Positions 45 to 51,800 of a DNA stretch of 64,000 bases are shown in pieces. The DNA is from Obrimoposthia wandeli. Taxonomy: Eukaryota. The DNA lies in the NCBI GenBank assembly GCA_977020255.1, contig CDROCS010005180.1, positions 62,001 to 126,000 on the forward strand. The letters run 5' to 3'. Made by a program: the position numbers and the translations under genes. The notes under the pieces were generated by a model. That model had not been told where the DNA came from. It did no database searches and saw nothing but the letters and a program-made list of their open reading frames with translations. How positions within the stretch are numbered: position 1 is the first letter of the stretch; the number at the start of each line of letters is the position of its first letter.

Positions 45-1385
45 ATGTTTCATGAACTAGTGGGAAAAGTATCAGCCGAAAAATCCAGCAAATTACTGCA
101 CTTACGACAGTATTTAGGACCAGAACCAATTAAATTAATTGAAAATTTGGGATTGTCGTCAGAAGCTTACGACGTAGCCATAGAAAGACTGAACCGAAGA
201 TATGGGGGTAACGAAAGATGTTATCGAAACATTCTTAATGAAGTCGATAACTTCAAAGTGATACGGGAAGAAGATATCAGAGAGTTTGAAAAGTTCACGG
301 AGCTGTTGGAAAGGACTCAAATGAAATTGAAAGTCTTAAATAAGGAAGAAGATTTAGGAAATAGTTACTTGTACCAGACCTTTTTAAAGAAGATGCCTAG
401 ACAATTAATTATGGAATGGACAAAATGGAAAAGACAAGAAGAAAAGACGGATTCAATGGAAGAAATGTTAAAATGGGCCCAGCAAAAGACAGATGATTTA
501 AGAGAAGCAGAAGAAGTCTGTCAAGGAAATAAGAGAAAACCTGAGCAAAGGGATAATTTTATAGAAAATAATAAATATAATCAAAGACGAACATACCCAA
601 GCAAGAATGTATATTTTAGTAACGCACCAAAAAACATAGTTCCAGAACAATCAAAGTTCACATCACAAAAAGGGATTCCTGAAACATGGAAAAAATGTTA
701 CAATTGTGGAGGAACACATTACACCGACCAATGTTTTAAGTTCAAAGAAATGAAAATAGAAGAAAGATGGGCAACAGTCAAGCAAAAGAAATTGTGTAAT
801 AACTGCCTAAAGCCAGGTCATTGGGTTAAAGAATGTAGAAGAGAACCAGTATGCAAGATAGATGGGTGCAAGAACAAACATCATTGGCTATTACACGTGA
901 AGAAAGACAGTTCCAGAAATCAAACAAATCTACATGTTGATAACAAGTCAACTGTGATGTTAAGAACAGTTCCAGTGATAATAAAGAATGGAGGGAGAGA
1001 AATAAAAATTAATGCATTATTGGATGATGCGAGCACAGTAAGTTACATTAGTAAGACAGCAGCCGATTATTTAAAATTACAAGGTGAGGAAGAAAAAACA
1101 CTAGTAGGAGTCATCGGAGGACAGGTAAAAAACCTGGATTGTAAAAAGGTATCATTTCTAATTCAAAACTTAGGAAGATCATTTAGAAGAAAGATTCAAG
1201 CATTAGCGTTAAAAGAAGTTACAGGAGACTTACGTGTAGTTGATTGGAATAGTATTAACAAGAGATGGAAACATTTAAAAGATATCAAGTTCCCAGTAAG
1301 TGAGAACAGAAATCAAGTCAATATGCTAATAGGAGCAGATTTAATTGAGATGCACAAAAGCATTGAGGAACGATGGGGGGTCTAA
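45..1385 (+). pseudogene. BEL/Pao gag + aspartic protease
   Basis: CYNCGGTHYTDQC, CNNCLKPGHWVKEC and CKIDGCKNKHHWLLH knuckles; INALLDDASTVSYI protease motif. Frame shifts in the G6 run at 1375-1380. Confidence 0.9.
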
Positions 1386-2565
1386 AGATCCGATAGCAAG
1401 AAGAACACCATTAGGGTGGACATGTGTAGGTAGAGCAAATCTAGGAAGGTCATATCAAAATCAAACAAACTTCATCCGAAGTTATTTGGGGAACACTGAA
1501 TTAGATAATCAGCTACGTCGATTTTGGGAAATTGAAAATAATTGTGAAGATGTAAAAATAATGAATAAAACAGATAAGCTGAGTTACGATAATAGTGTAA
1601 AAGCAATGATAATGGAAGAAGGAAGGTATGAAGTGAAGATTCCATGGAAAGAAGGTATTATGGAACTTCAAATAGATGAGCAAATGGCAATGAGAAGATT
1701 GCAGAGTTTACAAAGAAGATTAAATAAAGATAAGGAATTATCAGAAGATTACTCAAAGATCATAGAGGATCAAGAAAAGAAAGGGTATATAAGATTACTT
1801 AAAATAGAAGCTACGAAAGATACACGATGGTATTTACCGCAATTCCCAGTAGTAAAGCGGGATAGAAATACTACTAAGGTGAGAATAGTTTTCGACGCAG
1901 CCGCAAAAGATTGTGGAAAATGTTTAAACGATTTTATCGATAGCGGGCCAAAGTTACAGGGAATAGTTTTCGACGCAGCCGCAAAAGATTGTGGAAAATG
2001 TTTAAACGATTTTATCGATAGCGGGCCAAAGTTACAGGGAGATTTGATGGAAATACTTCTAAAATTTCGTGAAAAAAGAATCGCATTAGCTTGTGATATT
2101 ACAGAAATGTATTTACAAGTAAAAGTAAATAATTCAGATCGAAAATGGTTGCGTTTCTTATGGGACGATAAAGAAGGAAATATAGTAACCTATGAATACG
2201 AACGGATAGTGTTCGGATTAAATGTATCTCCGTTTTTGGCACAGATGGTATCGAGGGAAAATGCTAAAAAATATCAAGAGAAATATCCAGAGAGTGCGAG
2301 ATTGATCTTGGAAAACACATACATGGATGATACATTGTGCTCAGTAGATACAGAAGATCTAGCGAATAGTACAATTTTAGAAGTAAAAGAAATATGGAAA
2401 GGAGCAAAGAGGGAAGCCAAAAAATGGATAACGAGTAGTGAGGAGATAAATAAACAGATTCCATTATCAGATCAAGCAAAAGTATTACAAATCGATGACG
2501 AAGCACGTCAAGTAAAAACGTTAGGTATTCAATGGGATCCTCAAGAAGATTATTTTACCTTTTAA
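1345..2565 (+). pseudogene. BEL/Pao reverse transcriptase
   Basis: KVRIVFDAAAK, CLNDFIDSGPKLQ, CDITEMYLQV, FGLNVSPFLA, TYMDD, TLGIQWD. Ends at a premature TAA in frame with the next ORF. Confidence 0.92.
1883..2038 (+). repeat. Perfect 78-bp in-frame tandem duplication within BEL RT
   Basis: 1883-1960 equals 1961-2038; duplicates IVFDAAAKDCGKCLNDFIDSGPKLQG. Confidence 0.97.
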
Positions 2566-3123
2566 ACTAAAGTAGATTATGGGATTAATATTAGTAAGCG
2601 AGAATTTTTGAGTATATTGTCTACAGTATTTGACCCTTTAGGATTTGTGAGTCCGTTTATTGTAAAAGCGAAAATATTGATGCAAAAAGTATGGTTAAGT
2701 GGCTTAGGTTGGGATGAAAAGATAGAAGGAGATTTAAGGAAAGAGATAATGACGTGGATTTCACAGTGTAAAGATTTGGATCAAGTTCGAATTCCAAGAT
2801 GGGTCGGAATAGAACCGGATAAAGAAGAAGAGATTCACGTTTTTGTAGACGCTTCATCAGAAGCTTATGGTTCAGTGGCATATCTGAGGACAAGGAAAAA
2901 AGGAAAAATAAAAGTTGTGTTAATATCAGCGAAGTCAAAAGAACCGTTAAAAATAGATGATGTTGTGTTGGTATTAGAGAAGAAAAATGAGCGAGGTAAA
3001 TGGCCGTTAGCTAGAATAATAGAGTTGATAAAAGGACATGATGGATTAGTACGAGTAGTTAGATTGATGGTGGAAGGTAAGGAAAAGACGAAGTCGATAA
3101 GAAATTTGTGTTGGGTATTATGA
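2566..3123 (+). pseudogene. BEL/Pao RNase H N-part fused to integrase C-terminal (DUF5641-like) tail
   Basis: VFDPLGFVSP, HVFVDASSEAYGSVAYLR and SAKSK are joined directly to EPLKIDDVVLV..KWPLARI..GHDGLVRVV. Confidence 0.88.
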
Positions 3124-6639: not shown

Positions 6640-7130
6640 TATTATATCTCCCAAAGATTTTCTATAGAATTGAGGTCAGGGGATTTGGAAGACCAGGATA
6701 TAAAATCAACACATACTCTAGCAAACGGTCAAAGCGGCTCTAGAAATTGAAAACTCGGTCACAGTGTCATAATCTTCGATCCTTATATTTTGTGCACAGT
6801 CGTCTTCTGCTATCTTCTCTGGTATTGATTTACAATTTTCCGCCAACTTACGCACTGCCTACTATCCCACAATTATTTTTAATTCGACCAATATGCAAAA
6901 TGTTTCGTTTTCCGAAGAGATGGAGTCAAGGCTATCATCTATCTAGGTATATTTTAGTATTGTCTCTGCAGCCCTCAGAAGTAGGATTAATTTCTGCGTT
7001 CATACGAGAGACTTACTGAGCAAGAAATATCAATTCGTTTATGCCAAACACTAACTTACAATACTCATGAGTGACCACAATTATGTCACTTCTCCACCAT
7101 AAGAAACCCTGTCACAATCTGTATTTTGTT
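6640..7130 (-). pseudogene. Tc1-like transposase remnant
   Basis: Minus strand 6647-6697 translates WSSKSPDLNSIENLWEI, the Tc1 WPxxSPDLNPIENLW motif. Extent approximate. Confidence 0.6.
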
Positions 7131-7287
7131 GTTTACAACACTTAAAGATACATTTCTGAAATACTGTTCGGAATGTTTTACGGGCGCATAATACAAAATT
7201 TTGATAATTCCCTTAATTAGGAAAAAACCTTTAATTAGAAAAATAATTGAATAATGTACTTTAGCATTTCCATGTTTTTGTCGTTTA

Positions 7288-7340
7288 GTCCCCGACAGTT
7301 ATAAACTATTTCGGCCTAACCAGGGTCTCGTCAGGGTGAC
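7288..7340 (-). ncRNA. Type I hammerhead ribozyme
   Basis: RNA reads GUCACC-CUGACGA-GACC CUGGUUA GGCC-GAAA-UAGUU UAU AACUG-UC-GGGGAC. Full catalytic core, stems I-III present with one mismatch each in I and II, GUC cleavage site at 7294/7293. Confidence 0.82.
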
Positions 7341-7458
7341 GGCAAGCAAAACGCCGCGAAGAAAGAGATGAGAAATGGGGATTTTCACCTTTACCATGTG
7401 CCGATAATATGCACCAGCACTTTGCATTAATGTGCACACATGCACAAACTGTAAGCTT

Positions 7459-7477
7459 CACACACACACACACACAC
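7459..7477. repeat. (CA)n microsatellite followed by degenerate CACT-rich repeats to about 7545
   Basis: Directly visible. Confidence 0.9.
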
Positions 7478-7775
7478 CAATCATATACGCACTCATTCAC
7501 TCACTTACTCAATCAATTACTCACTCTTTCACTCTATACTCACATCTGTGTATATGCGATTACATGGATTTTGTGTAGATCCCTAACTTTCCAGTTGATG
7601 CGGTTATCTATTTGACATTGGCATCAATTTAGTGTAAACACACAAACGGACAGGCACGGAAATTGCATAATTGCATCCCTTTGGTGTCACATTTTCCAGT
7701 GCAGTATTAGTGCATCATCGAGACTGCGTATTTCTATGTGCTGCTGTTGTTGTATACTACTTGTCGCTTGTCGGC

Positions 7776-7782
7776 TATAAAA
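7776..7782 (+). promoter_or_regulatory. Candidate TATA box
   Basis: ggcTATAAAAgc upstream of the spliced gene at 8.2-9.6 kb. Confidence 0.35.
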
Positions 7783-8189
7783 GCAGTACAACGTTTTAGT
7801 AGTAGAAGTGATGACTTCGAGAACACCCCCGAGAAAGGAAAGATACTCCCGAGTACGTAATCTGTTGTCATAGAAACTTCATGTGTGTCACCATGACAAC
7901 GAACACGCACAGTCTCCATGGTTTGTGTGTTTAACTTTTTTTCCATTTAAGTATTTAAATCTAGATACACTCAAAAAGCAAGTTTTTTCCTACATTATAC
8001 CCTCCAAAAATGCACAGTCGAGAAAATATTACGATTTTTTTAATAATATTTTTAATCCAATGATATACATGTATTCAATCATCGTCATAAAACTTAAGAA
8101 AATAATATAAATGTTCAAATAAATTATTTGAATAATACGCTCTCATTGGATGTTGAACTCAATAAGCAAAATTCAATAAGCTTTTCCCC

Positions 8190-9560
8190 GATGAGATTCC
8201 GTCGGATCAGGAGGAGGATTTGACTCCATTCATTGACGAATAGATCCCGCAAAGTCTCGGAGCACCAGACAACACATCTTCCGAAAACGAGTCATTGGTG
8301 GCAGAATTGGACAACGAAGAGTGGCGGCTATTAATTGACGAATTGGATGGCCTCACTCCATATGCTACTCCAACTCCAATAGCAGACAATACAGTGCCTG
8401 GACCATTCAGAAGGCCACAATATCCGATACGGGCAGTTAAGAAAATAAAGGCGACGAATGAGGTTAGTCTATTAATTTATTTAAAATGTTTTTTAATTTC
8501 ATTTTCAGAAACTTTAATTTGATTACCACTGGGACCACGGTGAGAGGCTGATAAAACTGCAGTACTTGACGAGTCAATGCAGCCAGGAGGAGCCAAGGAG
8601 TGAGCACCAATACATTGCGACTCTGGATAATATCAAGGTAAATTATTTTAAATTAGATAATAATTTTAATTATTCACATAGGAAGCCAACTTGGTGGATG
8701 AAGTTATGAAGGATGCAACTCTCAAACTACCAATGGAAAGGAAGCAGGTTGTGGTTAGGAAACCATGAAGACATCGGGTCAAAACCCAGACGGTCCACCG
8801 GAAGAAGGCTAAGTTGGTGAAACAGGCAAACCTGCCTGTTATTAAGGTAAATTATTTATATGTTTAAATTTTATTGATTGTTTTTGCTGGAACCAATACA
8901 ATTAACTGAGGAGACGTGGGGAAAATATTTATATTTTCTCGCTAAGACGAATGAAGCGGGCCGGAAGACAAGGCGCTCTAAAAAGGTGAAATCCTGTCTA
9001 CTCAAATCTACCGAGGTATCGATGTAGCGACAGGAAAAACTTTCTTATCCTATTATTGAGGTAAATTTTTAAATTTTTAATAACATTTTTTTAAATAAAT
9101 ATATTTTAGTAAATTTTATTAATGTTTTTTGCAGGAACCGGTCCAGATAATTGAGGAGACATGGGGAGAAATTTATTCTTTCCCGCGGAGACAAATGAAG
9201 CGAGCAGAGGTGCTGAAGACAAAGCGCTCCAGAAAATTTAGCACCGCAAACCTCAATTCTTTTGAGGCAGAGATTGGCCGAATGTGATTGGATTAAAAAT
9301 ATTTCAAATTTACATAAATAGGTTAAAATTTATTTACCTCTTCATAAATAAAAACATGGAATTTACTAAAATGCAAAGTCTCGTGACGAAAAAAGAAGAA
9401 AACATCAGAAGAAATGGGAAGAAAGGAAATTTAAGAAAGAGAATCCTGAATAAGAATTTGTACGCTGCTGTCGCGACCAAGTGGAATCGACGGGTGAAGA
9501 TTCAAGGCAGGATCCTGGACTGGAATAGGAAGGTAGAATTGGAGCAAAGCTGAAAAATAA
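8190..9560 (+). pseudogene. Spliced acidic-repeat gene of unknown function (copy A)
   Basis: Coding-like exons (QEEDLTPFIDE*, WRLLIDELDGLTPYATPTP..FRRPQ) separated by introns 8463-8508, 8638-8681, 8847-8889 (acceptor TG) and 9061-9134. Homologous to 21.3-23.2 kb (-). Confidence 0.65.
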
Positions 9561-13479: not shown

Positions 13480-14498
13480 ATTATATTAGATGCAGATATC
13501 CAAGTTGGATCTGAATAACCATGCCATTTAACATAGTATTGTTTATGTTTACCGGTACCCTTAGATTTTAATATTTTTTGAATACGTTAGGTTTAATTGA
13601 TATTACTTGTAGTTCTTGCTCGTAAAATTTACCGTAAACGATATTATTTGCAGCATGTTTTATAGTATACATTATTGGATTACTCTTTTGATCAATTTTA
13701 TTTATACAAAATATTTCATCGCTCCAATTCTGATCAAACATTTTAATAAATGGAGTAGATCTAATTTTAAAAATTCGAACATATTTGTTTTTCTTATATT
13801 TAGCTTTTTTAATATTTTCTTTTTTATTCCTGTCTATCCAAATATCCATAGAGATTTTATCAGTAACATCAACAAGTCTCATTCCCTTGAGACTTATATG
13901 TTCAGAGTGATTATATGCATGTATTATTTTAGGTAAAACTTGGATCCATTTTTTTATTTCCTTCTTTTGTAAAATACTTTTTTATTCGATCTCTTAAAGT
14001 ACGATTAAATCTTTCTACTACTGCTGCTTTGTACTGCAAAAACACCGAGTAGTGATTTATATTATTTTGTTTAAATAAAGATTGTACTTGCTTATTATAA
14101 AATTCTTTTCCTAACTCACTTTGCACATTTTGTGGAATGTCCTCTTTTAATATTTCTTTAATGGCTTCAAGCATAGCTCTTGAAGACTTTGCTTTAACTG
14201 GAATTTCACGAGCAAACCTACTCAATACATCAATACATGTTAAAATATATCGATATCCCTTATTAATGGAAGAATATGGAATCATCTCCATCAAATCCAT
14301 TTGCCATAAATTATTAGGACCGCTGGTTTTGTAAGCTCTAGTTGGAAACCTTCTTCTCGTCGGCTTGTTCAGGCTGTAGGCTAACTGATCGCTCAGCCAT
14401 TTCTGCGTTTTCTTGTAATTCTGCTTTGTTCTTTTTACCAATTTTGAAACTCCTGTGTAGCAAATTGGATCTTTTGGATTGAACCATATCTTCTCCAT
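13476..14498 (-). pseudogene. Polinton retroviral-like integrase with C-terminal chromodomain-like tail, frameshifted
   Basis: WQMDL, YILTCIDVLSRFA, KAAVVERFNRTL, QNWSDEIF, GKFYEQELQ and KGTGKHKQYYVKWHGYSDPTWI over three frames. Confidence 0.92.
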
Positions 14499-14569
14499 TA
14501 CAACAATTTGAATATATAGAAAATTTAAATTTAGGTAAAGAAGGGTTAGCACCCATATCTTTAGCTGAT

Positions 14570-14914
14570 TTTATAAATAATTGTTTATGAACGTGTTGCA
14601 GCTATAATATTACTGATAATTGAAGCAACAACTAGAATAACAGCCCTTATGAAACCACCATTATTTTTAAGAATAATATTTCATTTTCTTTTTTTACTTT
14701 TTACATGAGCAATATCTAGAAGAGTTTTTCTATTTTTCTTTAATACATTTTTCCGTTTTCCAACTTTTATTCGACCCAAAACTATATTATACAAAACTTC
14801 CAATAAATCATATACAACAAAATATGGAAAAGCTTTAAGAATACTCATTTTCTTATGAGAAGAGAATTTGACCAAAGCTTTAAAATAAGGTATGCTTCTT
14901 TGTATTTTCTTCAT
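14570..14914 (-). pseudogene. Small basic Polinton protein ending in a GGF + hydrophobic motif
   Basis: Lys-rich ORF continues past a stop as NIILKNNGGFIRAVILVVASII, a putative adenain-site pattern. Confidence 0.55.
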
Positions 14915-23200: not shown

Positions 23201-25433
23201 AATCATCAAGTGACCAGAGTGGTGAGTTGAAGAAATACCAGACCAATAGAAGAAGTGACACACAGAGGAGAATAGAAAATCAGTGGACGAAAATAATGAT
23301 TAATCAGGAATAACCAGAAAATTGATATGAAAGAAGCATTACCTCTACAAGAAAATAAAAAATATCTTGGACACCATACAGAAGAAGAAGAATTTTAAAG
23401 GAAGCCGCAAGAAGGTCGACTCAACCAAGAACAGGTTGCAACAAGAGAATTGAATCATACGACAAGCAGCACTACAGAAGGACCGATATTTATACGGTGA
23501 GTAATCCTATATTGTAATTTTAAATCTAAACTTCGAAATTGAGCAAATTACAATTTAAACTAGTAAAATTGTGTTTATTTATCCTGTAGCAGGATCATTA
23601 TTTTTGGTAAAAATAAAATCTGGGTAAAATTCTTAAGCATGAAACACGCTCAAGCCTTCTTTAACTTTTAACCCTATTGTTTAGTCAAAATAAAATCAGC
23701 CTGTAAACGACACAAAACACATTATCCCAGACACATATTGATCAATTGGTCAGAGTTTACGTGATTCTTTTTAACATTGTTGTTGTGTAAAATTCTAGTT
23801 TTAACCGACTTATTATATTTAATATTTTGATTTTGGTAATAAAATAAAGCACTTTATATTTTGAAAAAAATCGTTCTAAAATTCGACAAATAAGACAAAG
23901 ACAATACGATAATTTTTGAGAATATTTTTGTCGTACACGTTTTAAAACATAGAGAATAACCCTACGGTTTTAGCCGAAAAACATAAATTTTTAAAAGTCA
24001 TCGACTCTCTGATTAAGCGAAGATTTACAATTAAATGAGGTATAAAAAACGTATACCTTCAGATAATTTTTGAGACGAATAAGAGGATAGGCCGTCTATA
24101 CAAGTCCTATCAATTTAAAAAACTCACGCACCAGAGGCTTCCCTAAGTAGCGTTACAACTCTGGTTCCAACACCTTCATTATCTAAATTCTGTAAGCTGT
24201 GTAAGTGGGAAAATGTGTATTTCAAACATTACAATAATATTGGGTTTGGTATTGGTTTGTCATATTTTTGAAAAATAGAAAAAACTTTAAATTATTTTTT
24301 AAATTGGAAAATGTAGACTAAAGAATTTTTTTTTATTTTTTCACTTTTGAATTTAAGCAAAAATTTCAAGATTAATAAATAAAAATGTTGCAAATATCCC
24401 AGTAATAGGAAAATGGTTAGACCAGAGCACTATCTAAAAAGGGAGTAATAACAACGTTTTGGGTTGTGGTCTGGTCTATCCAATTTCCTATTACTATCTT
24501 TGTAGGGCAAGCCCAGTGTGTTGGAGTAACAACTAATGAAACTAATAGGTTTAAACACTAACCTTTGAGATTGTAGTAGATTTATTAAAATTAGTCTTCT
24601 AAATAAAAAATTGCAACATAAATAAGCATTTGAACTTAATCTAATCAATTCTAGAATCTAATTCTTTCCAGTATGATACCCCAACAATTCAAATTAATGT
24701 TAAATCATTTTATTCCATATCTCTAGTGATAAATTTACCAATGTCATCAATTTTTATATAATGTCTTTCTCAAGCTTTTAATTAGTTAAATAAGGCTATT
24801 TTGTTGGCTAAGTATCAATGGAAATAAAAATAATATACCTGGTATTTTCGAGATTTTGTAATTCTAATTCCAACGGGTGAATTTTTTTAAATGAAAAAGT
24901 AATAAGATTTATAAAATTTGCTTGAACTAATACACACTACAAATGAATATAATTTTCGTTATTACATAATTTATTATAAAGTTTAAAATGCAAATAATAA
25001 TAAAATATTTATTTTATATTCGAAACATTTTTATTAGCATTTATTTACTTCAAAATTAAATATATTAAATGTAATTATATTTCTTTGCTAGTCCCCTAAG
25101 AAAATTTATCTTTAAGAAATAATAAGTAATGCATGTTTACTGAATTTTATAACCTTTTTTTAATTAAAATTTAGTTAGATAAAACAGAAACTTGTATTTT
25201 TTAAATTTTACACAATTTGCAAATATTTAGAGTCTATATTGAAAGTTATTTTAAATTTAACATGGTACTGAGGAATTGTTTTTATTTTCTTGTTTAGTTG
25301 TACCATTTGTTTATATCTGTTTAAATTGTTTTCGAAAGTGTAATTACACAAAGAAATACTGTGTAAATTGTAAATTATTATAATTTTAAGCCCCTTAATA
25401 TATTTATTTAGATTTCAAAATTAACCCATAGAA

Positions 25434-27363
25434 ATGAACATTCAAGGAGGAGATCAGAATGACCAAGCCCTGTGGAAACAGTATCTAAATATACCAGAAA
25501 AAGATTCGAGACTTAAAACTGTTGATGTAACTGCAACCCAAGGAAATTCATTTGACGATTTTTGTCTCAAAAGAGATATTTTGAAAGGAATTTATGAAAA
25601 AGGCTGGGAGATGCCATCTCCCATTCAAGAGGCCAGTATTCCTATTTCACTAATTGGTAGAGATATTTTAGCCAGAGCTAAGAATGGTACTGGTAAGACT
25701 GGTGCTTATTCTATCCCATTGTTGGAAAAAATTGACCCAAACATTAATCAAATTCAAGGTATAATATTAGTTCCAACTCGGGAATTGGCCTTACAAACTA
25801 GTCAAATTTGTACAGAATTGGCCAAACATACCGAGACAAAAGTAATGGTAACTACTGGAGGCACAAGTTTAAAAGATGATATTGTGAGATTGCAGCAATC
25901 TGTTCATATTATAATTGCAACACCCGGTAGAGTTCATGATTTAATTAAACGAGATATTATATCGACAAACTTTTGTAAAATTCTAGTAATTGATGAAGCT
26001 GATAAACTTCTTTCAGCCGACTTCGAACAAGTTCTTGACTTCATCATTAATAAACTACCAAATCAGAGGCAAATCATGCTGTATTCAGCAACCTTTCCCC
26101 AAACTGTACAGTCCTTTTTAGTAAAGCACATGAAAGATCCTTACGAAATCAATCTCATGGATGAATTAACCTTGAAAGGTATAACCCAATATTACGCTTA
26201 CGTTCAAGAAAGACAGAAGGTCCACTGTTTAAATACATTATTTTCTAGATTACAGATAAATCAGTCAATTATTTTTTGTAACACTGCTCAGCGTGTAGAA
26301 TTGCTTGCAAAGAAAATAACCGACTTGGGATATTCGTGCTATTATATCCACGCCAAAATGAATCAAGTTTACAGAAATAGAGTTTTCCATGAGTTCAGAA
26401 ATGGAAATTGTCGAAATCTAGTCTGCACTGATCTGTTTACCCGTGGTATAGATATACCGTCTGTTAATGTTGTGATAAATTTTGATTTTCCAAAATATGC
26501 CGAAACATATCTCCACCGGATTGGAAGATCGGGTCGATTCGGTCACCTTGGTATTGCAATTAACCTTATTACGTACGAAGATCGCTTTGCGTTGAAGAAT
26601 ATAGAAACGCAATTAAATACGGAAATCAAGGCTATCCCTAAAGCAATTGATAAACGGCTATACGTGGCTGAGTGTCAGAATGAAAAAGAGCTTGATGCGC
26701 GAACCCGAGATGCGCTCGCTCGTGGTGAAGGCCAACTTCTCGAGCTGGATCCAATACAGTGAGTTAATAAAATTATTTTAATAGAACCCCAAACTACGCT
26801 TTTATAATTTATAAACTTATTTTGTTATGTATTGTATAAGGCTCTAAAATCTATAGATTTTCATGATACTTACAGAAATATTGAAAGCCGTAAATTTTCT
26901 TCTGTCTTGGTTTAAATTTTAAATAATAATAATTCAGTTTTAAATTGAAATTTTCAGCATTTCTTTTATTGTTATTACATAATAGGTGTGCTATTTTATG
27001 AAAATAAATGCTGGTCGCTATTCTTAAAACAATATCTAATTTAAATTGTAAATTAGTTATTTTTGTCTTCAATTTTTTAAAATATATATTTTAAAACCCG
27101 ATTAATTTTGAAAATACATTTAAAGACCACTTTGTGTTACATTTTTGATTAGACTTGCAGAATATGATTATGTTAATATCTTCATTTGCCAGTTAATAAT
27201 CAATTTCTTTCTCAGACAAGCTATGGCGAATGGGCCAATTACCAATGTACAGAAACCGAACCCACCCGTTCAGAAGCAAAACCCCATGAATCAAGGCGCG
27301 CGCAACGACTTTAATAACGCCTACTCTCAACGGCAGCTTCCCCAACAAAATATTCGACAGTAA
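25434..27363 (+). CDS. DDX6: DEAD-box RNA helicase DDX6/Me31B/Dhh1; exons 25434-26758 and 27216-27363
   Basis: [37 protein letters not shown] and RLYVAE are intact. GTGAGT donor at 26759 and CTCAG acceptor at 27215 join in frame to a Q/N/P-rich exon. Confidence 0.97.
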
Positions 27364-41949: not shown

Positions 41950-43620
41950 TAAATAGGAGTGAAATTATTTGGATTAAAATAGAAAGGAATTTTCACAGTT
42001 TTAATTGAATTAAAGTATTTCACAGTTTTTGAATTAAAGTAAAAAAGGAATTTTCATAGTCTTATTTGGATTAAAGTAGAAAGGAATTTTCACAGTTTTT
42101 GAATTAAAGTAAAAAAGGAATTTTCACAGTTTTTGAATTAAAGTAAAAAAGGAATTTTCACAGTCTTATTTGGATTAAAGTAGAAAGGAATTTTCACAGT
42201 TTTAATTGAATTAAAGTATTTCACAGTTTTTGAATTAAAGTAAAAAAGGAATTTTCACAGTCTTATTTGGATTAAAGTAAAAAGGGAATTTTCACAGTTT
42301 ATTGAATTAAAGTAAAAAAGGAATTTTCACAGTTTTTGAATTAAAGTAAAAAAGGAATTTTTACAGTCTTATTTGGATTAAAGTAGAATGGAATTTTCAC
42401 AGTTTTTGAATTAAAGTAAAAAAAGAATTTTCACAGTTTTTGAATAAAAGTAAAAAAGGATATTTTACAGTCTTATTTGTATTAAAGTAGAAAGGAATTT
42501 TCACAGTTTTAATTGAATTAAAGTATTTCACAGTTTTTGAATTAAAGTAAAAAAGGAATTTTCATAGTCTTATTTGGATTAAAGTAGAAAGGAATTTTCA
42601 CAGTTTTTGAATTAAAGTAAAAAAGGAATTTTCACAGTCTTATTTGGATTAAAGTAGTAAGGAATTTTTACAGTCTTATTTGGATTAAAGTAGAAAGGAA
42701 TTTTCACAGTTTTTGAATTAAAGTAAAAAAGGAATTTTCACCGTTTTAATTGAATTAAAGTATTTCACAGTTTTATTATGTTTAAAGTAAAAAAGGAATT
42801 TTCACAGTTTTTGAATTAAAGTAAAAAAGGAATTTTTACAGTCTTATTTGGATTAAAGTAGAAAGGAATTTTCACAGTTTTAATTGAATTAAAGTATTTC
42901 ACAGTTTTTGAATTAAAGTAAAAAAGGAATTTTCATAGTCTTATTTGGATTAAAGTAGAAAGGAATTTTCACAGTTTTTGAATTAAAGTAAAAAAGGAAT
43001 TTTCACAGTCTTATTTGGATTAAAGTAAAAAAGGAATTTTCATAGTCTTATTTGGATTAAAGTACAAAGGAATTTTCACAGTTTTATTTGAATTAAAGTA
43101 GAAAGGAATTTTCACCGTTTTAATTGAATTAAAGTATTTCACAGTTTTATTTGGTTTAAAGTAAAAAAGGAATTTTCACAGTTTTTGAATTAAAGTAAAA
43201 AAGGAATTTTTACAGTCTTATTTGGATTAAAGTAGAAAGGAATTTTCACAGTTTTAATTGAATTAAAGTATTTCACAGTTTTTGAATTAAAGTAAAAAAG
43301 GAATTTTCACAGTCTTATTTGGATTAAAGTAAAAAAGGAATTTTCATAGTCTTATTTGGATTAAAGTAGAAAGGAATTTTCACAGTTTTATTTGAATTAA
43401 AGTAGAAAGGAATTTTCACCGTTTTAATTGAATTAAAGTATTTCACAGTTTTATTTGGTTTAAAGTAAAAAAGGAATTTTCACAGTTTTAATTGAATTAA
43501 AGTATTTCACAGTTTTATTTGGATTAAAGTAAAAAAAAAGAAGAAATTTCACAGTTTTATTGAAATTAAAGTAGAAAAGGAATTTTCATAGTTTTATTTG
43601 AATTAAGGTAGAAAAGAAAT
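41950..43620. repeat. Minisatellite of roughly 50 interleaved 27/34/36-bp variant units
   Basis: Units cacagtttttgaattaaagtaaaaaaggaatttt, catagtcttatttggattaaagtagaaaggaatttt and cacagttttaattgaattaaagtattt. Confidence 0.97.
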
Positions 43621-44604
43621 TTTATTGATTGCATTGTGAAACTAATTATCAAATAAAATTGAATTGCCCATAATTACGTTAAATTGCCGAAATTGTATTG
43701 AGATTACCCCGCAATTGAAATTGGAATATTCCGCATTATTGCCTAAATTAGAGCAGCAACTCTACTGAACTTCATCCCGTGCTAGAGCAACAGCTCGGTA
43801 AACTACTCGTACTTTAGAGCAACACTCTGCGAACTTGCCGCAATTTTAGAGAAAAAACTCTAGCATCAACCAACCCTAATACCTAAAATCGATACGTGGT
43901 TCATCCCCACTAGTGTAGAGACTTTCAGAAGTCTTAGGAATTTTACTACAACTTTTTAGAAAATACGTACGTAAACGTATTGTTTTGTTTAGTCTAGTGT
44001 GTTAACAATAAACGATTTCCTACATTAGAAAGCATTGTTCTAAACCCTTCAGATTAAGACACAACAAAAAACCTTCAGATAAGAATTGAGACAGGCACCT
44101 ATAACCTTAAGTAGGCCACAACCATCCCTAAGACCTGCTTCTATATAACTCACGTTAGGGCCCTCCACATTCAAGAGGATCTATAAGTTTCATATAGAAA
44201 CCCCAACACTTACTACACTATGAAAGGGCCTCAGAATATTGCATATAATTAGAATAAGAATGTCCGTGTTCATGCAAATGTAAAATGTATTTTTAATTAA
44301 AAAAATAATAAAAGGATTCATAATAATTGTTTGCGTTACGTAGTCAATCAGTAAGAATAAAAAAATCCAATATAAAATTGTGTTATTTTCCAAAAACAAA
44401 TAATCTTTTAACTACGAGAATTATATAATTTTTTATATTACCAATATTATTATTTTTATTGTCGTCATTTTTTTGTTGTTGTGTTTTTTAAAAAAATATA
44501 ATTTTATTATTATTCAGTTAACAGCTTTTTATTTACTAATTACTTCATGTAAGTATTTTTTAAAATTTCAAATATAAGATTACATTTTTTGTTACTCAAG
44601 TTTA

Positions 44605-45075
44605 TTAGTTTTCTTTAATTACTTGTTGACATAAATTTATGTGTACTCTTATTTCTTTTAGTTTTCGGTCATTTTCAAGTTTGGCTGTTATATTAATTCC
44701 GTAATTACTAATTATTGTATATGAACTTTTGTATAGCATAGATAATTTGTGATATAGACCGACTGTAATTTGTGAGTTGTGATTCATTATTTTATTTCCA
44801 AATTTTAATTCTGACGATCTAGTTGGTCTGTTGTAATATTCTTTATAGTTTTTTTAAATATTTTTTATAAATAACTTAGCTTTTACAAATGTAAGTTTTA
44901 GTTTTTTTCTAATTTCTTTTTTATATTCTGTTATTTCTAGAAAGTGTGTTGTAGGTTGTATTAATGTGAAATTAATATACATTTGAGCATCTCTAAGGAA
45001 CATAAGGTAGAATGGTGTTTCTCCAGTAGTAAAGGTATCTTTAAAAATTAAAATATTGACTATTAGTAGTGTTTT
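44605..45075 (-). pseudogene. Gypsy integrase C-terminal region
   Basis: TTGETPFYLMFLRDA, YKEYYNR, GLYHKLSMLYKSSYTII (GPY/F-like) and RVHINL. Confidence 0.8.
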
Positions 45076-45426
45076 CCATAGTGCAGGTTTTACTATTGAG
45101 TTGTGACTATGCTGCTCACAATATGTTATGAATGTCTCTATGCGTACTCTACAATCAAAATCTTCTGCATATATAAAATCTGTTTCTTGGTTTACTTGAT
45201 ATAATTTTGTATTTTAAATTTTAATTTCTTTTAGGTCAGCCTCTGTGCATTGTTGCAAATCCATTAAGGAAAATTTGTTTTGTATTTTATATTTTGGACA
45301 GTCATAAACTTCTAGAGCATTAATTAGTTTTATCATGTTCATAAATAGACATATTGTTAATATTATCTTTATAAATTTCCATAAACTTTGTATAATTTTG
45401 TTGAATTTTTTTGTGTTTTTAAACAT
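45076..45426 (-). pseudogene. Signal peptide plus N-terminus of a chuvirus-type (class III) glycoprotein
   Basis: Hydrophobic leader, then LEVYDC..FSLMDLQQC..KLYQVNQ..FDCRVRIETFITYCEQHSHNSIV. The YDC/SL-D-C/C-x-V/C-x-x-HSH-x-S pattern is recognised from recall. Confidence 0.62.
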
Positions 45427-46811
45427 TTTTGATTCGTTTTTTCTTGTGTGTTTGCTTTCTTTTCCTGAGTTTGAGTAATTTGGTTTGTTTTTGTTGTTGT
45501 ATATTTATTATTTTGCAATGTTAGACAACCATCTCTAAACATGTCTTTAAATTCGGATTGTAAGTTTGTTTTCTCTGTATTCGGTTCATTGTTATGGTAT
45601 TGTTGATGCATTTCTCTGTAGCGATTATCCATTTCTTTAAGTCTTAATTTTAATAACGCAAATTCATCTGTGTTTGGAGTTGTTTCTGCATTTTCAATAG
45701 TGTGTATAGGGTTTCTAGGAGTATATTATTGATCTTGAGTATTGAATTGTACTGTTTTTTGAATTTGTGGTTATTGATTTATTGTTGTGTTTCCAAATTG
45801 ATTCATAATTGTGTTTAATTTTCTACAGTCATCGGTGTTGTCATTTTTCATATTACATATCTTACAAAAAAATTTATTGTTATTAAAATATCTATTTTGA
45901 TTATTGTAATTATTGTTTGATTTATTGAAATTATTATTCCTTGGTAGAGTATTATTACTTTACCTATTTATTAGTTTTCTACAAGTTTCAATCGTGTGAT
46001 TGTTGTTTTTGCAAAATCAGCAAAATTTTATGTTACTTAATTTTTGACAATTTTTTATTGTGAGATTTTGGAGTCCACAATTTGTGCATTTTTGAAAAGA
46101 TCTTTGTGTAAATTGTGAGTTTGTGAAATTTCGAATTGACTGATTTTTATAAAAACTATTTATTGGTGGTCTAAATTGTTGATGATTTTGAAATTTATAT
46201 TGAGTATCTGGGTTAAAATTCTGAGTTTGGTTGTAGTTTGGTGGTCGTTGTATTTTTTTCAAAAGATAGTGATGAGACTTCGGTTTACTGTAACATATTT
46301 AGTCTTGCTTCTACTAGCTGAGCTTTTCCTGTAGCTTGTTGAAAGTTTTCCACTTCTAGTAATGCTGGGTGATCTCTGATTTTATTATTTAAACAATATA
46401 AGAACTGATTTAAAAGTAATAATTCTCTTTGTGCTTCCTCAATTTCTTGAAATGATTTTGAAGCTAATCATCGCAATTCGACTACAAAGAAAATCGTGGG
46501 TTCTCCTATATGTTGTTCACGTTGTCTGAATTAATTTATGTAAATTTGTTCTGTTTGTACTCCTAGAATTATATTTTGAAAATTTTGTACTAAATGTTCC
46601 CATGTGTCTTTTTGTTGCTCAGTTAATCCTCTATAAATAGTTAAGGCTCTCTTTAGATACTCTTTAGATATGCGGGGAAACCTCTAAATTTTTCTGGGTA
46701 AGTTCATTCAAATGCCTGAGCAAATGAATCGTATATATTCAAGAATTCTTGCAAAGAAGATTTATCGCCATTAAAAGCGTCTGGTGGTACATTCATTCTA
46801 TGACCTGCCAT
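45369..46811 (-). pseudogene. Ty3/gypsy gag with three Cys/His knuckles, disrupted
   Basis: PDAFNGDKSSLQEFL..YLK..ALTIY..W..L..F..RQREQHIGE..FVVELR.LA..LLNQF; knuckles CTNCGLQNLTIKNC, C*FCKNNNHTIETC and CKICNMKNDNTDDC. Confidence 0.85.
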
Positions 46812-48857: not shown

Positions 48858-51800
48858 ATGGAGAGTGCTAGGAAATCTCCAATAAACTTTAATCACAAGC
48901 TGGAATCTGAGCGTGCAAAAATGAAACGCACGAAAGTAAAAAAGCAAACCTATGAGACTCAGATGTTGCAACCTTCCGACAACAGAGACATTTTAGTCAA
49001 AGAAGAAAGAAAGCCATTGTGTGATGACAACAAAAAGGAGTCAAATAACTTTCGATCAAATTATGGTTGGTAACCTTTTGTTTAATATGTTAAATATTAT
49101 TTAGCCTATGACGGTCCGCAGGCATATGAAATGATAAATCCAGATGGAATTACATCTACACACGTTCAGGTTCTTCGTGTAAATCCTGAAAAAGTTGAGC
49201 CAGAAAATGAATTCGTAGGTCAGTGGCTCAGTTACAGTTTACTTTGTTACATGGCTTGAAAAAATAAATTATAAAAAAATGTAGGTAATTATCAACTAGG
49301 GTGAGATATAAGCAATTTCTTTTCATATTTCATTTCATATTTTACTATCCTAGTTTGATTTGATAATATGAACAACTATTAACCATCAGTACAATTTTCA
49401 TTCTATAAATCATAAAATTTGCCCAAATTAATTCATAATTTTTAAAGTTTTGTGATTTTCATTTTAAATTAAGTAAAATTAAATTAACTTAAGCGATTTT
49501 AAAAAATAATTTGTGAAACTCAAAATTATTACCTGGTATTAAACTGACTAAATAAGTTGATGCGTACTTTATTTCAACGAATTAGTTATTTTGTGATAGG
49601 ATTACAGATTAGTATTAAATATACACTTGAATTTGATGCTTTTGAATGAGTAGATACTAACCTACAGACAAACACTTAATTAAACATGCAGTCTTGTATT
49701 AATTCCGTTTCATTTTTTAAATATCAAAACAAAGACTAAGTTATTTTATTTTTAGTGCAATTAACAATTTATTTTATCTGACGTAATTAAAAAATTAAAG
49801 GACAAACTTTTTAAGATCTAAAACCTGACTAAATTATGACAAAGTTAAAAGAATATGACTTTTTATGACAACAAACATAAAATGAAGAAAAACACAAATA
49901 ATTAATTTTCTATACTATGTATTAGGTTACGTATGAAATGTCGTACTTTTTATTAAAAATCAAAAGCTAATAACTTTCCAAAACTAAGTTTATTTAATCA
50001 CAAAAGGGTCATAAGCATCAGTACATTGCTGTCATTTATGCAAAAGTTTATTTATTACATTTTGATAAAATTCTAAATCTTTGAAGTCTAAAAAATCCAA
50101 AAAGGCACTTTTGACAGACCTGTCGTCTCTGAACACTCTACCGTCGATAAATGTCTGAAATTGATTGAAAAAATAATAATCTATTGGTGCTAAGTCTGGA
50201 GAGTAAGGAGAGGGATGTAAGACTTCATATCAAAGTTGCTTAAGCTTCAGACTAGTAACTTTAGAAATACGTGGTCTAGCATTGTCATGTAAAATAATAT
50301 GACCTGTTCTATTAACTAATGAAGGCTGTTTAATCAAAAATTTTCTGTGCATTTCTTCTATTTCTACACAGTACTTTTCGGATTCAATAGTTTCACCAGA
50401 ATTTAGAAAGTTTTAATGAACAATGCCAGCTGCTGACAACCATACAGTAACCATTATCTTTTTTCTTGAACTTCAGATTTTGGAAAGTGTTTAGGAGGTT
50501 CATTTTTATAAACCCATTGAGCCGAGTGACGTCGATTGTTATATTTAATCCACTTTTCGTCACAGGTTACAAATCGATTCACAAAAGATTCATTTTCATG
50601 TCGTTGAAGCAAAGAAAAACAAATTTCATATTGTCCTATTTTTTTTAAATTAAGTTCATGAGGAACCCACTTATCTAGCTTTTTGACTTTTCCTATAGAT
50701 TTTAAATTCTGAGATATTGTTCCATTTGATACTTGTAAAACGGCAGCAAGTTCTTTGAGACTTTGGCGAGGATCAGACTCTACTAAGTCCTTCAAAACTG
50801 TGTCATCAACAACGGACTCCGGACAGCCTCGGTCTATATTTCGAAGACTTGTATCTCCATCATTAATTTTTTAAAATCAACGTTGAAGGATTCTAACGTT
50901 AGCTGTACTCTCTCCAAATGTATATCTATGTTTATGGTTGCGTCAGATGCATTATGACCGAGTTTCCATTCATAAAAATAAATCGAACAAATTTGAATGT
51001 TTTCCATCTTAAAATTCTATCTAAAATAATGTCAGTAATTTAAAATAGTATGAAACGAAACTTATATATTTAAAATGTTTAAATTTCAAAGATATTAACT
51101 GATATCTTAAAACAAAAAATGTTTCATTTTCAAAAAAAATCTGAAGTTGAAAATTATATGTTAAAAATACGACATTCCATATTGTTCTATATTAAAATAA
51201 ATAACAAAATATTTTTCGTACAAATTGTCTATCACTTGTAATCAGTTTATTTAGCATTAAAAATATCTTTCCACTGCTGCAGATGTAGCCTGACATTTTT
51301 AAAGCTTTGCGTATAGGGTTGGTGATATTGTTGGTCTAGTATATTAACTATATCCAAAACGTAATTTGAGTTTAATCGTTTAGTTAAATATCTTTTAATA
51401 TCGCATATACACACCCAAATTAAATTTAACAATTTAACGGCTTCAATTGTAATTATGGGGTTCGAATTTTATTACTAGTTCAAAGATTTTCATATAACCT
51501 CTTTGTATGTCATAAGTCTTTATCTACTTAATTTACACTCTTTAGCCAAGTTCTCCACCTTGTTACAACTGGTTGAGTGGCATTCCAATTTCATGAAATA
51601 AATCACGGCCATACTTGTTTTACAATCAATAGTTTTATTGAACTTATTAAGTTATCAACAGATTCAAAATATTAAATTTTTATTTTTATAACACAATTAC
51701 GTAACTAATGCAAAGACACGTTATATGAAAAAGATTATTTGGAAATTATTTATTTCAACCCCTAATTCACGAACACTATCATCTTTTGTACGTTCAATTA

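Follow-up and report, generated by a model that had tools for sequence, protein, structure and literature searches.

An antisense type I hammerhead motif in the LTRs of an env-bearing Gypsy-type retroelement family of Obrimoposthia wandeli

A type I hammerhead sequence is carried by the LTRs of an abundant, protein-coding Gypsy-type family in the genome assembly of Obrimoposthia wandeli (GCA_977020255.1), on the strand opposite to that of the element's genes. Comparison of the copies makes it highly probable that the LTR context, the fixed antisense orientation, and an invariant core with covarying stems hold jointly for this motif. The window, a stretch of 64,000 nucleotides from contig CDROCS010005180.1 (positions 62,001 to 126,000, forward strand), contains one such motif in a truncated LTR (Table 1).

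Table 1 Features of the window.
Feature	Positions	Strand	Remarks
Truncated LTR, type A, likely U3 part, of the gag-env-pol Gypsy family	7166–7798	+	
LTR 5' terminus, variant of the family start TGTTGGG	7166–7176	+	
Type I hammerhead motif	7288–7340	-	Full core, 2 unpaired stem positions, predicted cut after C7294
Hairpin remnant	7341–7375	-	In types A, B, D, E, a hairpin stands upstream of the ribozyme; loose contig ends at 7347
(CA)n + (CTCA)n tract	7458–7535	+	Belongs to the LTR in types A, B
TATA-like box TATAAAAG	7776–7783	+	Shared with type B LTRs
Broken internal fragment of the same family: gag, env-like, orfX pieces	44608–46811	-	62–85% aa identity
Other high-copy repeat beside the LTR piece	7940–8173		3,021 candidates, about 90% identity
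Exon-like repeated segments	8190–9300		After the repeat at 7940–8173
Broken Pao/BEL element	1345–3123	+	RVT_1, Peptidase_A17, DUF5641
Integrase core fragment	13568–14570	-	
DDX6/me31B helicase frame, stop-free, 445 aa	25425–26762	+	91% identical to the Dugesia japonica protein; 76% or less to the other animals listed
Array of about 36-bp units	41965–43623		47 copies, higher-order periods
Weak Tc1/mariner transposase fragment	50454–50870	-	

The hammerhead motif and its LTR in the window

Read on the minus strand from 7340 to 7288, the motif consists of the stem I 5' arm, CUGACGA, stem II, GAAA, stem III, GUC, and the stem I 3' arm. The hammerhead core (CUGANGA, GAAA, NUH) is thus accompanied by an open stem I and closed stems II and III. 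A sequence check and a descriptor match bore out the core and three helices of the initial annotation, and the layout of the minus strand places the predicted cut at the same nucleotide. The single mismatches it listed are also present, in stem I (7337 versus 7291) and stem II (7326 versus 7314). A U follows the 6-bp stem I and an A closes loop II, as in most relatives. The full type I descriptor (core plus three stems) matched the 64-kb window once, at this motif; it also matched 2 of 200 Markov-simulated windows. The Rfam search that had been proposed as a check gave a divided result: no match was obtained for the whole window at E ≤ 5, but with 7230–7430 (201 nt) as the query RF00163 aligned to exactly the 53 positions of the motif, weakly (14.3 bits, E 1.1). 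The best sister copy, the single match among five loci submitted, scored 32.4 bits (E 9.5e-5), and neither copy reached the gathering score of 34.

Folding predictions were unfavorable for this copy. The MFE was −14.7 kcal/mol versus −2.5 kcal/mol for the hammerhead fold (z −0.97), and the three-way junction was not formed in silico, the hammerhead fold lying 12 kcal/mol above the MFE. Stem III was predicted to be stable (mean pair probability 0.91), so that its 3-nt loop, from which a requirement for dimeric folding had been suggested, gives no ground for invoking a dimer. Monomeric cleavage has been described for most type I motifs of invertebrates whose helix III is stable (PMC7761336). The mismatches had been taken as decay, and the copy is indeed worn: two stem positions are unpaired, the hairpin upstream is shortened, and the hammerhead fold is unfavorable. 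The stem I mismatch, however, is common to most copies of LTR types A and D and is therefore not decay of the window copy. Judged by its sequence, we regard the motif as a genuine type I hammerhead, but as a worn copy, and the folding predictions indicate that this copy is likely inactive or slow.

The surrounding LTR is 81% identical over 662 nt to the relatives L002/L104, and its distal part (7579–7798) is 82–86% identical to young type B LTRs. The ribozyme is located about 125 nt inside the 5' end, and the upstream hairpin is about 20–25 nt shorter than in relatives. The (GT)n tract noted upstream of the motif in the initial annotation is present at about 7460–7478, and in types A and B it lies within the LTR. 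The TATA-like box is a candidate sense promoter, and homology to the family stops about 15 nt past it, at 7798. Neither a matching 3' end nor a target duplication was seen for the window LTR. CA plus ATAC at 8386–8391 was considered as the closing end and rejected, as 7800–8390 has no similarity to any LTR. No PPT-like GGAT precedes 7166, which suggests that this was once a 5' or a solo LTR. The internal fragment at 44608–46811 is 37 kb away and unlinked to it. Contigs of four sequencing runs (one sample) on 7050–7950 pile up at the ribozyme and the TATA region, and those of one run bridge both LTR ends (7166 and 7798); these contigs carry no strand, end, or expression information. The RT of the Pao/BEL element at 1345–3123 is unrelated. 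Judged by the DDX6/me31B frame at 25425–26762, the host is a triclad planarian or close to one.

The Gypsy-type family and the orientation of the ribozyme

The 281 nt around the motif gave 40 scored matches of 471 genome candidates (72–88% identical, including an array on contig C6912), and the genome copies that the initial annotation proposed to look for were thereby found. The next 321 nt of the window are also repeated, in 20 young copies at 82–86%. By the descriptor, 17 of these 20 carry a different hammerhead, fully or nearly fully paired. All of them end sharply about 100–185 nt 3' of the ribozyme. On the other strand they start with TGTTGGG and end with ACA after 1.17–1.44 kb, although no far end was recognised in 5 of the 20. 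Matching 4-bp flanks, as of solo LTRs, were found in 10 copies, which represent 7 independent sites. A PBS-like sequence, TGGTGAGCC, directly follows three of the copies, and GGAGGAT directly precedes two.

A complete element of 13.4 kb (C3802:22902–36342) has LTRs that are 93% identical and is bordered by TATT on both sides. It encodes, in order, gag, an env-like protein, protease, RT, RNase H, integrase, orfX, a short ORF, and an exonuclease. The ribozyme is on the other strand from all of them. The env-like ORF between gag and protease matched PF24664 with an E value of 2.7e-58. The order of gag, env-like gene, and pol is the same in seven full elements (C3802, C31, C453, C1706, C685, C2465, and C2132), which are about 13 kb long with a coding interior of about 11 kb, and at least 97 pol copies are 97–100% identical in protein. 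At the family level, the features of Ty3/Gypsy elements are present: TG...CA LTRs with a 4-bp target duplication (not in the truncated window copy), a PBS after the 5' LTR, a purine tract before the 3' LTR (short, ending in GGAT), and the PR-RT-RNase H-integrase order. A search for the primer tRNA of the PBS with one guessed pattern gave 0 matches.

The 604-aa orfX (L096:6372–8183, minus strand) lies directly behind integrase. It has no Pfam family and no usable Atlas match, and its N-terminal part is also present in distant relatives. The exonuclease ORF (PF00929; L096:4439–5152, minus strand) is just ahead of the 3' LTR. Its identity between LTR types is 42–80% at the amino acid level, it diverges much faster than pol, and on these comparisons it seems to travel with the LTR. 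Between types B and C, pol is 87–88% and gag-env 81% identical in DNA. The RT of C2465 appeared to be only 52% identical, but this value is an artefact of many indels (93% nucleotide identity to C453), and no deep divergence of pol is therefore claimed. Viral contigs gave no match for pol, the env alignment, or the ribozyme pattern. Relatives from other hosts have the same gene order, with RT at 59–69%; the hammerhead core was found in none of 10 such loci, of which three are long and in which the LTRs may be missing. Such elements can, on this count, do without a hammerhead. In the metagenome relatives L206, L207, and L208, a single open frame of 3,184–3,703 aa spans the env-like region, pol, and orfX; two of the three have the exonuclease, and their available DNA contains no hammerhead core.

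Type A, to which the window LTR belongs, is old and rare, with 32 pattern matches genome-wide, 14 of them in the C6912 array. Among 20 type A loci taken with 5-kb flanks, 5 have a linked exonuclease/orfX or PBS-gag-env in the same arrangement and the other 15 show no family gene linked within that distance. Four of the linked loci (L118, L121, L122, and L127) stand behind an exonuclease, with a GGAT/TGTTGG junction in three, and L131, whose match covers 7346–7565 and excludes the ribozyme, stands before a PBS-like site, gag, and env. Two LTRs are chimeric, combining a type A ribozyme part with a type B distal part: that of the window (distal part 7579–7798) and L104:7175–7928, whose distal part is 96% identical to type B. 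Their composition points to recombination between LTR types.

The tandem arrangement that the initial annotation proposed to look for exists in one place, while most copies are dispersed LTRs. The array (G000:C6912:181671–204244; L032–L034) has units of about 700 and 1,220 nt and holds 16 intact type A ribozyme cores together with degenerate units. Each unit consists of an LTR start and about 750 nt matching no other fetched locus, and from its make-up we take the array to be an LTR piece turned into a retrozyme-like satellite.

A Penelope pLTR or a non-autonomous non-LTR retrozyme had been suggested as the host of the motif. The type I topology, the C6912 array, and the solitary state of most type A copies are in line with this suggestion, but it is largely refuted and, in our estimation, extremely improbable: it is contradicted by the TG...CA ends, the 4-bp duplications, the PBS, and the gag-env-pol genes, and the roughly 750 nt of the C6912 unit fit an amplified LTR piece with its flank. 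No ORF with RT and GIY-YIG domains was found upstream on the ribozyme strand (pieces of at least 115 aa; PF01541 profile), and 76 of the 77 ORFs scanned around 22 sister copies gave no GIY-YIG or RT family match. The PF01541 profile may miss PLE endonucleases. A search of the assembly for GIY-YIG gave 64 matches, and the 44 examined look bacterial. The top 30 loci do so by their ORFs, and the 14 further ones fall under UvrC, fusions of an exonuclease with GIY-YIG, or isolated domains within gene-dense DNA. Many gene-dense contigs of the assembly (L066–L095 and L274–L287) look bacterial, with UvrC and typical operons. The description as a non-autonomous ribozyme-bearing repeat family holds in that the motif is indeed part of a repeat family; the repeat, however, is the LTR of a protein-coding Gypsy-type element.

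Across the family, the ribozyme lies about 65–190 nt inside the LTR 5' end. It was seen in 13 of the 14 LTRs of the seven full elements, always antisense to the genes. A 27-letter pattern of core and stem II has 5,216 exact matches in the genome, in the younger LTR types (control, 0). The first 100 of these include 18 same-strand pairs 11–14.5 kb apart versus 2 opposite-strand pairs, and 1 pair only within 1.5 kb. A sample of 20 was formed from every fifth of these first 100 matches (contigs C1–C65), and is thus selected for stem II. The LTR start TGTTGGG was found 99–190 nt away in all 20. Family genes are linked in 13, as nine 3' LTRs behind the exonuclease and four 5' LTRs before PBS and gag, and the ribozyme is antisense in each of the 13. 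Seven have neither neighbor, six of these with a candidate duplication, and a sense-oriented ribozyme occurs in none of the sample. At L022, L049, L132, L134, L137, and L180, LTRs of different types adjoin, which puts two ribozymes 350–850 nt apart and mimics a retrozyme monomer.

The fixed antisense orientation rules out the usual role of hammerheads, the processing of a transposition intermediate: the genomic RNA would hold the complement of the ribozyme, which could not process it. A sense hammerhead would be expected to cut the genomic RNA in the 3' U3, so that only the antisense orientation would fit a normal LTR cycle.

Conservation of the ribozyme and its possible roles

The LTRs contain 43 distinct ribozyme strings in about six types, 25 of which were picked to span the types for a covariation analysis. 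All 25 variants agree in the 11 core letters of CUGANGA, GAAA, and GU, 95.1% of the cells are paired, and 9 of 14 pairs have changed on both sides, which are the compensatory changes that the initial annotation named as a check. None of 500 shuffles matched the pairing, the double-change cells, or the score (7 of 500 matched the number of pairs), and slid controls gave 32–52% pairing; this test counts sequences rather than events and ignores kinship, the variants belonging to about six related types. Types B, C, and D align with one another almost only over 55–117 nt at the ribozyme, and their linked exonucleases are 42–46% identical in amino acids. In the strings, U1.7 is kept in 51 of 55 and the last A of loop II in 50 of 55; a contact between the loop II A and U1.7 is noted for two hammerhead crystal structures (PMC11875169). 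As it is in hammerheads, position 7 is free to vary (C 22, T 18, A 15). G-U pairs number 40 on the ribozyme strand, against 14 A-C pairs.

In the sample of 20 young copies, all 15 pairs are kept in 19, and 13 adopt the hammerhead fold in isolation. With 75 nt of upstream and 20 nt of downstream sequence, the hammerhead was the MFE structure in none of seven copies, so that activity would rest on kinetic or tertiary folding.

These data bear on whether the motif is of any use to the element. It may be a passenger, the end of a retrozyme or Penelope element that was inserted once in an ancestral LTR and survived there owing to its reversed orientation. In animals, PLEs and non-LTR retrozymes are known carriers of type I hammerheads (PMC7761336, PMC7229834), of the two orientations only the antisense one would be harmless, and the core is absent from the 10 loci of distant relatives, where LTRs may be missing. 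Within type A (22 copies), moreover, the ribozyme is conserved to 84.9% and the adjacent LTR end to 83.0–83.5%, with no excess for the ribozyme. A neutral piece, however, should decay like the rest of U3, yet the core is invariant, the three stems have been rebuilt with other pairs across LTR types that are otherwise mostly dissimilar, and U1.7 and the loop II A, both unpaired, persist. A donor element was also not found by the GIY-YIG search or among the ORFs beside the 22 copies. We consider a useless passenger quite unlikely.

It is very improbable, in our view, that selection acts instead on the sense RNA or the DNA (for example, on U3 structure near the PPT or on integrase or transcription factor sites), leaving the likeness to a hammerhead as a relic. 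Such selection would agree with the good conservation of the whole first 175 nt of the type A LTR and with similar folding energies on the opposite strand. The conserved unpaired letters, though, spell a catalytic core on the antisense strand only, the freedom of position 7 is that of hammerheads, and the wobble pairs favor the antisense strand.

We tentatively favor, at somewhat less than an even chance, the view that the antisense ribozyme serves the LTR as a guard, cutting antisense RNA before the coding region and so lowering silencing triggers. The substrate would be antisense RNA that crosses the LTR toward the outer end of U3, arising either at a promoter inside the LTR or through transcription that continues in from flanking DNA. 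Intact copies would cleave as monomers, aided by the contact of the loop II A with U1.7. At a 3' LTR, the cut would fall just before the antisense transcript reaches the exonuclease and the other genes, and the 3' product, with a 5'-OH and no cap, would decay. Less long antisense RNA over the exonuclease, orfX, pol, env, and gag could weaken piRNA or dsRNA silencing, and weaker silencing would explain selection on the element. Planarian transposon piRNAs are described as mostly antisense, with LTR elements as the main targets (PMC8532177), and ribozyme-cut reporter RNAs were reported to be rapidly degraded in yeast (PMC3241649). Against a guard stand, besides the folding of flanked copies, the conservation within type A, the relatives that lack the core, and the unlinked type A loci, two further points. 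A 5'-OH end is described as a poor substrate of Rat1/Xrn2, and cleavage as not ending transcription (PMC3241649, PMC2702688), so that cleavage would not stop antisense transcription; and no conserved antisense TATA was found across 8 LTRs. The full claim, that an env-bearing, protein-coding animal LTR element keeps an active antisense U3 hammerhead as an RNA counter-defence, is in our judgment somewhat unlikely. If it is true, backward transcripts would be cut before the genes, the piRNA pathway would be starved of antisense precursor, and this would be the first case of a ribozyme acting against silencing in a retrovirus-like element.

Alternatively, the ribozyme may shape a defined antisense RNA, either by forming the 3' end of a short LTR-born promoter regulator or by releasing a retrozyme-like LTR-to-LTR circle, a possibility we hold to be unlikely. 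Two direct-oriented ribozymes per full element reproduce the geometry described for plant LTR retrozymes (PMC4918200), LTRs of types A, B, D, and E have a hairpin ahead of their ribozyme, and the tandem units of C6912 with their 16 intact cores would suit such an RNA. On the other hand, the PBS is present on the ribozyme strand only as its complement, which would exclude for a circle the tRNA priming that has been proposed in plants. The unit would be 12–14 kb versus 0.6–1 kb in plants, the first 100 matches include a single pair within 1.5 kb, and the lack of a conserved antisense TATA in the 8 LTRs applies here as well. A role as a guard specifies where and on which strand the cut would fall and what should happen to antisense RNA and piRNAs. 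The purpose of a retroelement ribozyme can therefore be tested directly, and RNAi and small-RNA methods are established for the host animal group.

Comparison with known ribozyme-bearing and env-bearing elements

Plant LTR retrozymes are described as having a hammerhead in each LTR, a PBS, a PPT, a 4-bp target duplication, Ty3/Gypsy ends, and solo LTRs (PMC4918200), all of which are shared with the present family. With Gypsy elements, the plant retrozymes have nothing but the end boxes in common (PMC4918200). Their ribozymes are of type III and not type I, and they are non-coding elements of 0.6–1 kb (PMC4918200), whereas the present family resides in an animal and encodes gag, an env-like protein, and pol in about 13 kb. 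The ribozyme is here opposite to the PBS strand in all linked cases, while binding of tRNA through the PBS is described for the plant circle, a polarity that we infer from the text of that paper (PMC4918200).

The PLE pLTR hammerheads and animal non-LTR retrozymes share the type I topology, the animal genome, and the location in repeats (PMC7761336, PMC7229834), and animal type I motifs have been assigned to PLEs, Terminons, and non-LTR retrozymes (PMC7761336, PMC7229834, 10.64898/2026.07.22.740005). These are described as minimal motifs or as tandem arrays with units of 150–400 nt, and they lack an LTR end, a PBS, and a PPT (PMC7761336, PMC7229834). Unlike them, the ribozyme reported here has a full 5-bp stem III within a true LTR; in place of the tandem units without LTR ends, PBS, or PPT that define animal non-LTR retrozymes, we found dispersed LTRs. 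Scattered "retrozyme-like" hammerheads of animal genomes can thus be solo LTRs.

In its genes, the family fits the GAG-ENV-POL errantiviruses reported from flatworms. These elements (Platyhelminthes, Nematoda, and Bryozoa; HSV/gB-type ENV) share the gag-env-pol order, the chuvirus/mononegavirus-like glycoprotein PF24664, a flatworm host, and LTRs with a PBS in many near-identical copies (PMC13524379); orfX and the exonuclease are extra in the present family. The words "ribozyme" and "hammerhead" do not occur in the main text of that paper, and the PBS string of the family is absent from those of its supplements that were searched. Burro/GYPSM1, a giant Gypsy element of planarians, also has a mononegavirus-like env between gag and pol and thousands of copies (PMC6431247). 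It exceeds 30 kb and has apoptosis and ubiquitin domains, versus about 13 kb here, and the passages on Burro in this review mention no LTR ribozyme (PMC6431247). The rotifer LTR elements Vesta and Juno share an extra 3'-5' exonuclease ORF behind pol, but there the DEDDy exonuclease ORF3 is described as standing in place of env (PMC5408684); neither "ribozyme" nor "hammerhead" occurs in the paper.

A search of openly accessible papers gave no account of a hammerhead in the LTRs of protein-coding animal LTR elements. The arrangement of the present family, in which the LTRs of an abundant Gypsy element with an env-like gene keep an antisense type I hammerhead, thus appears to be undescribed for such elements. 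As summarized in reviews, genomic hammerheads fall into two sets, one of type III, carried by plant LTR retrozymes that do not code for protein, and one of type I, carried by animal Penelope-like or non-LTR elements, and the role of the animal type I hammerheads is called unknown. The present family breaks this split, as it combines a type I hammerhead with true LTRs, coding capacity including an env-like gene, and thousands of copies.
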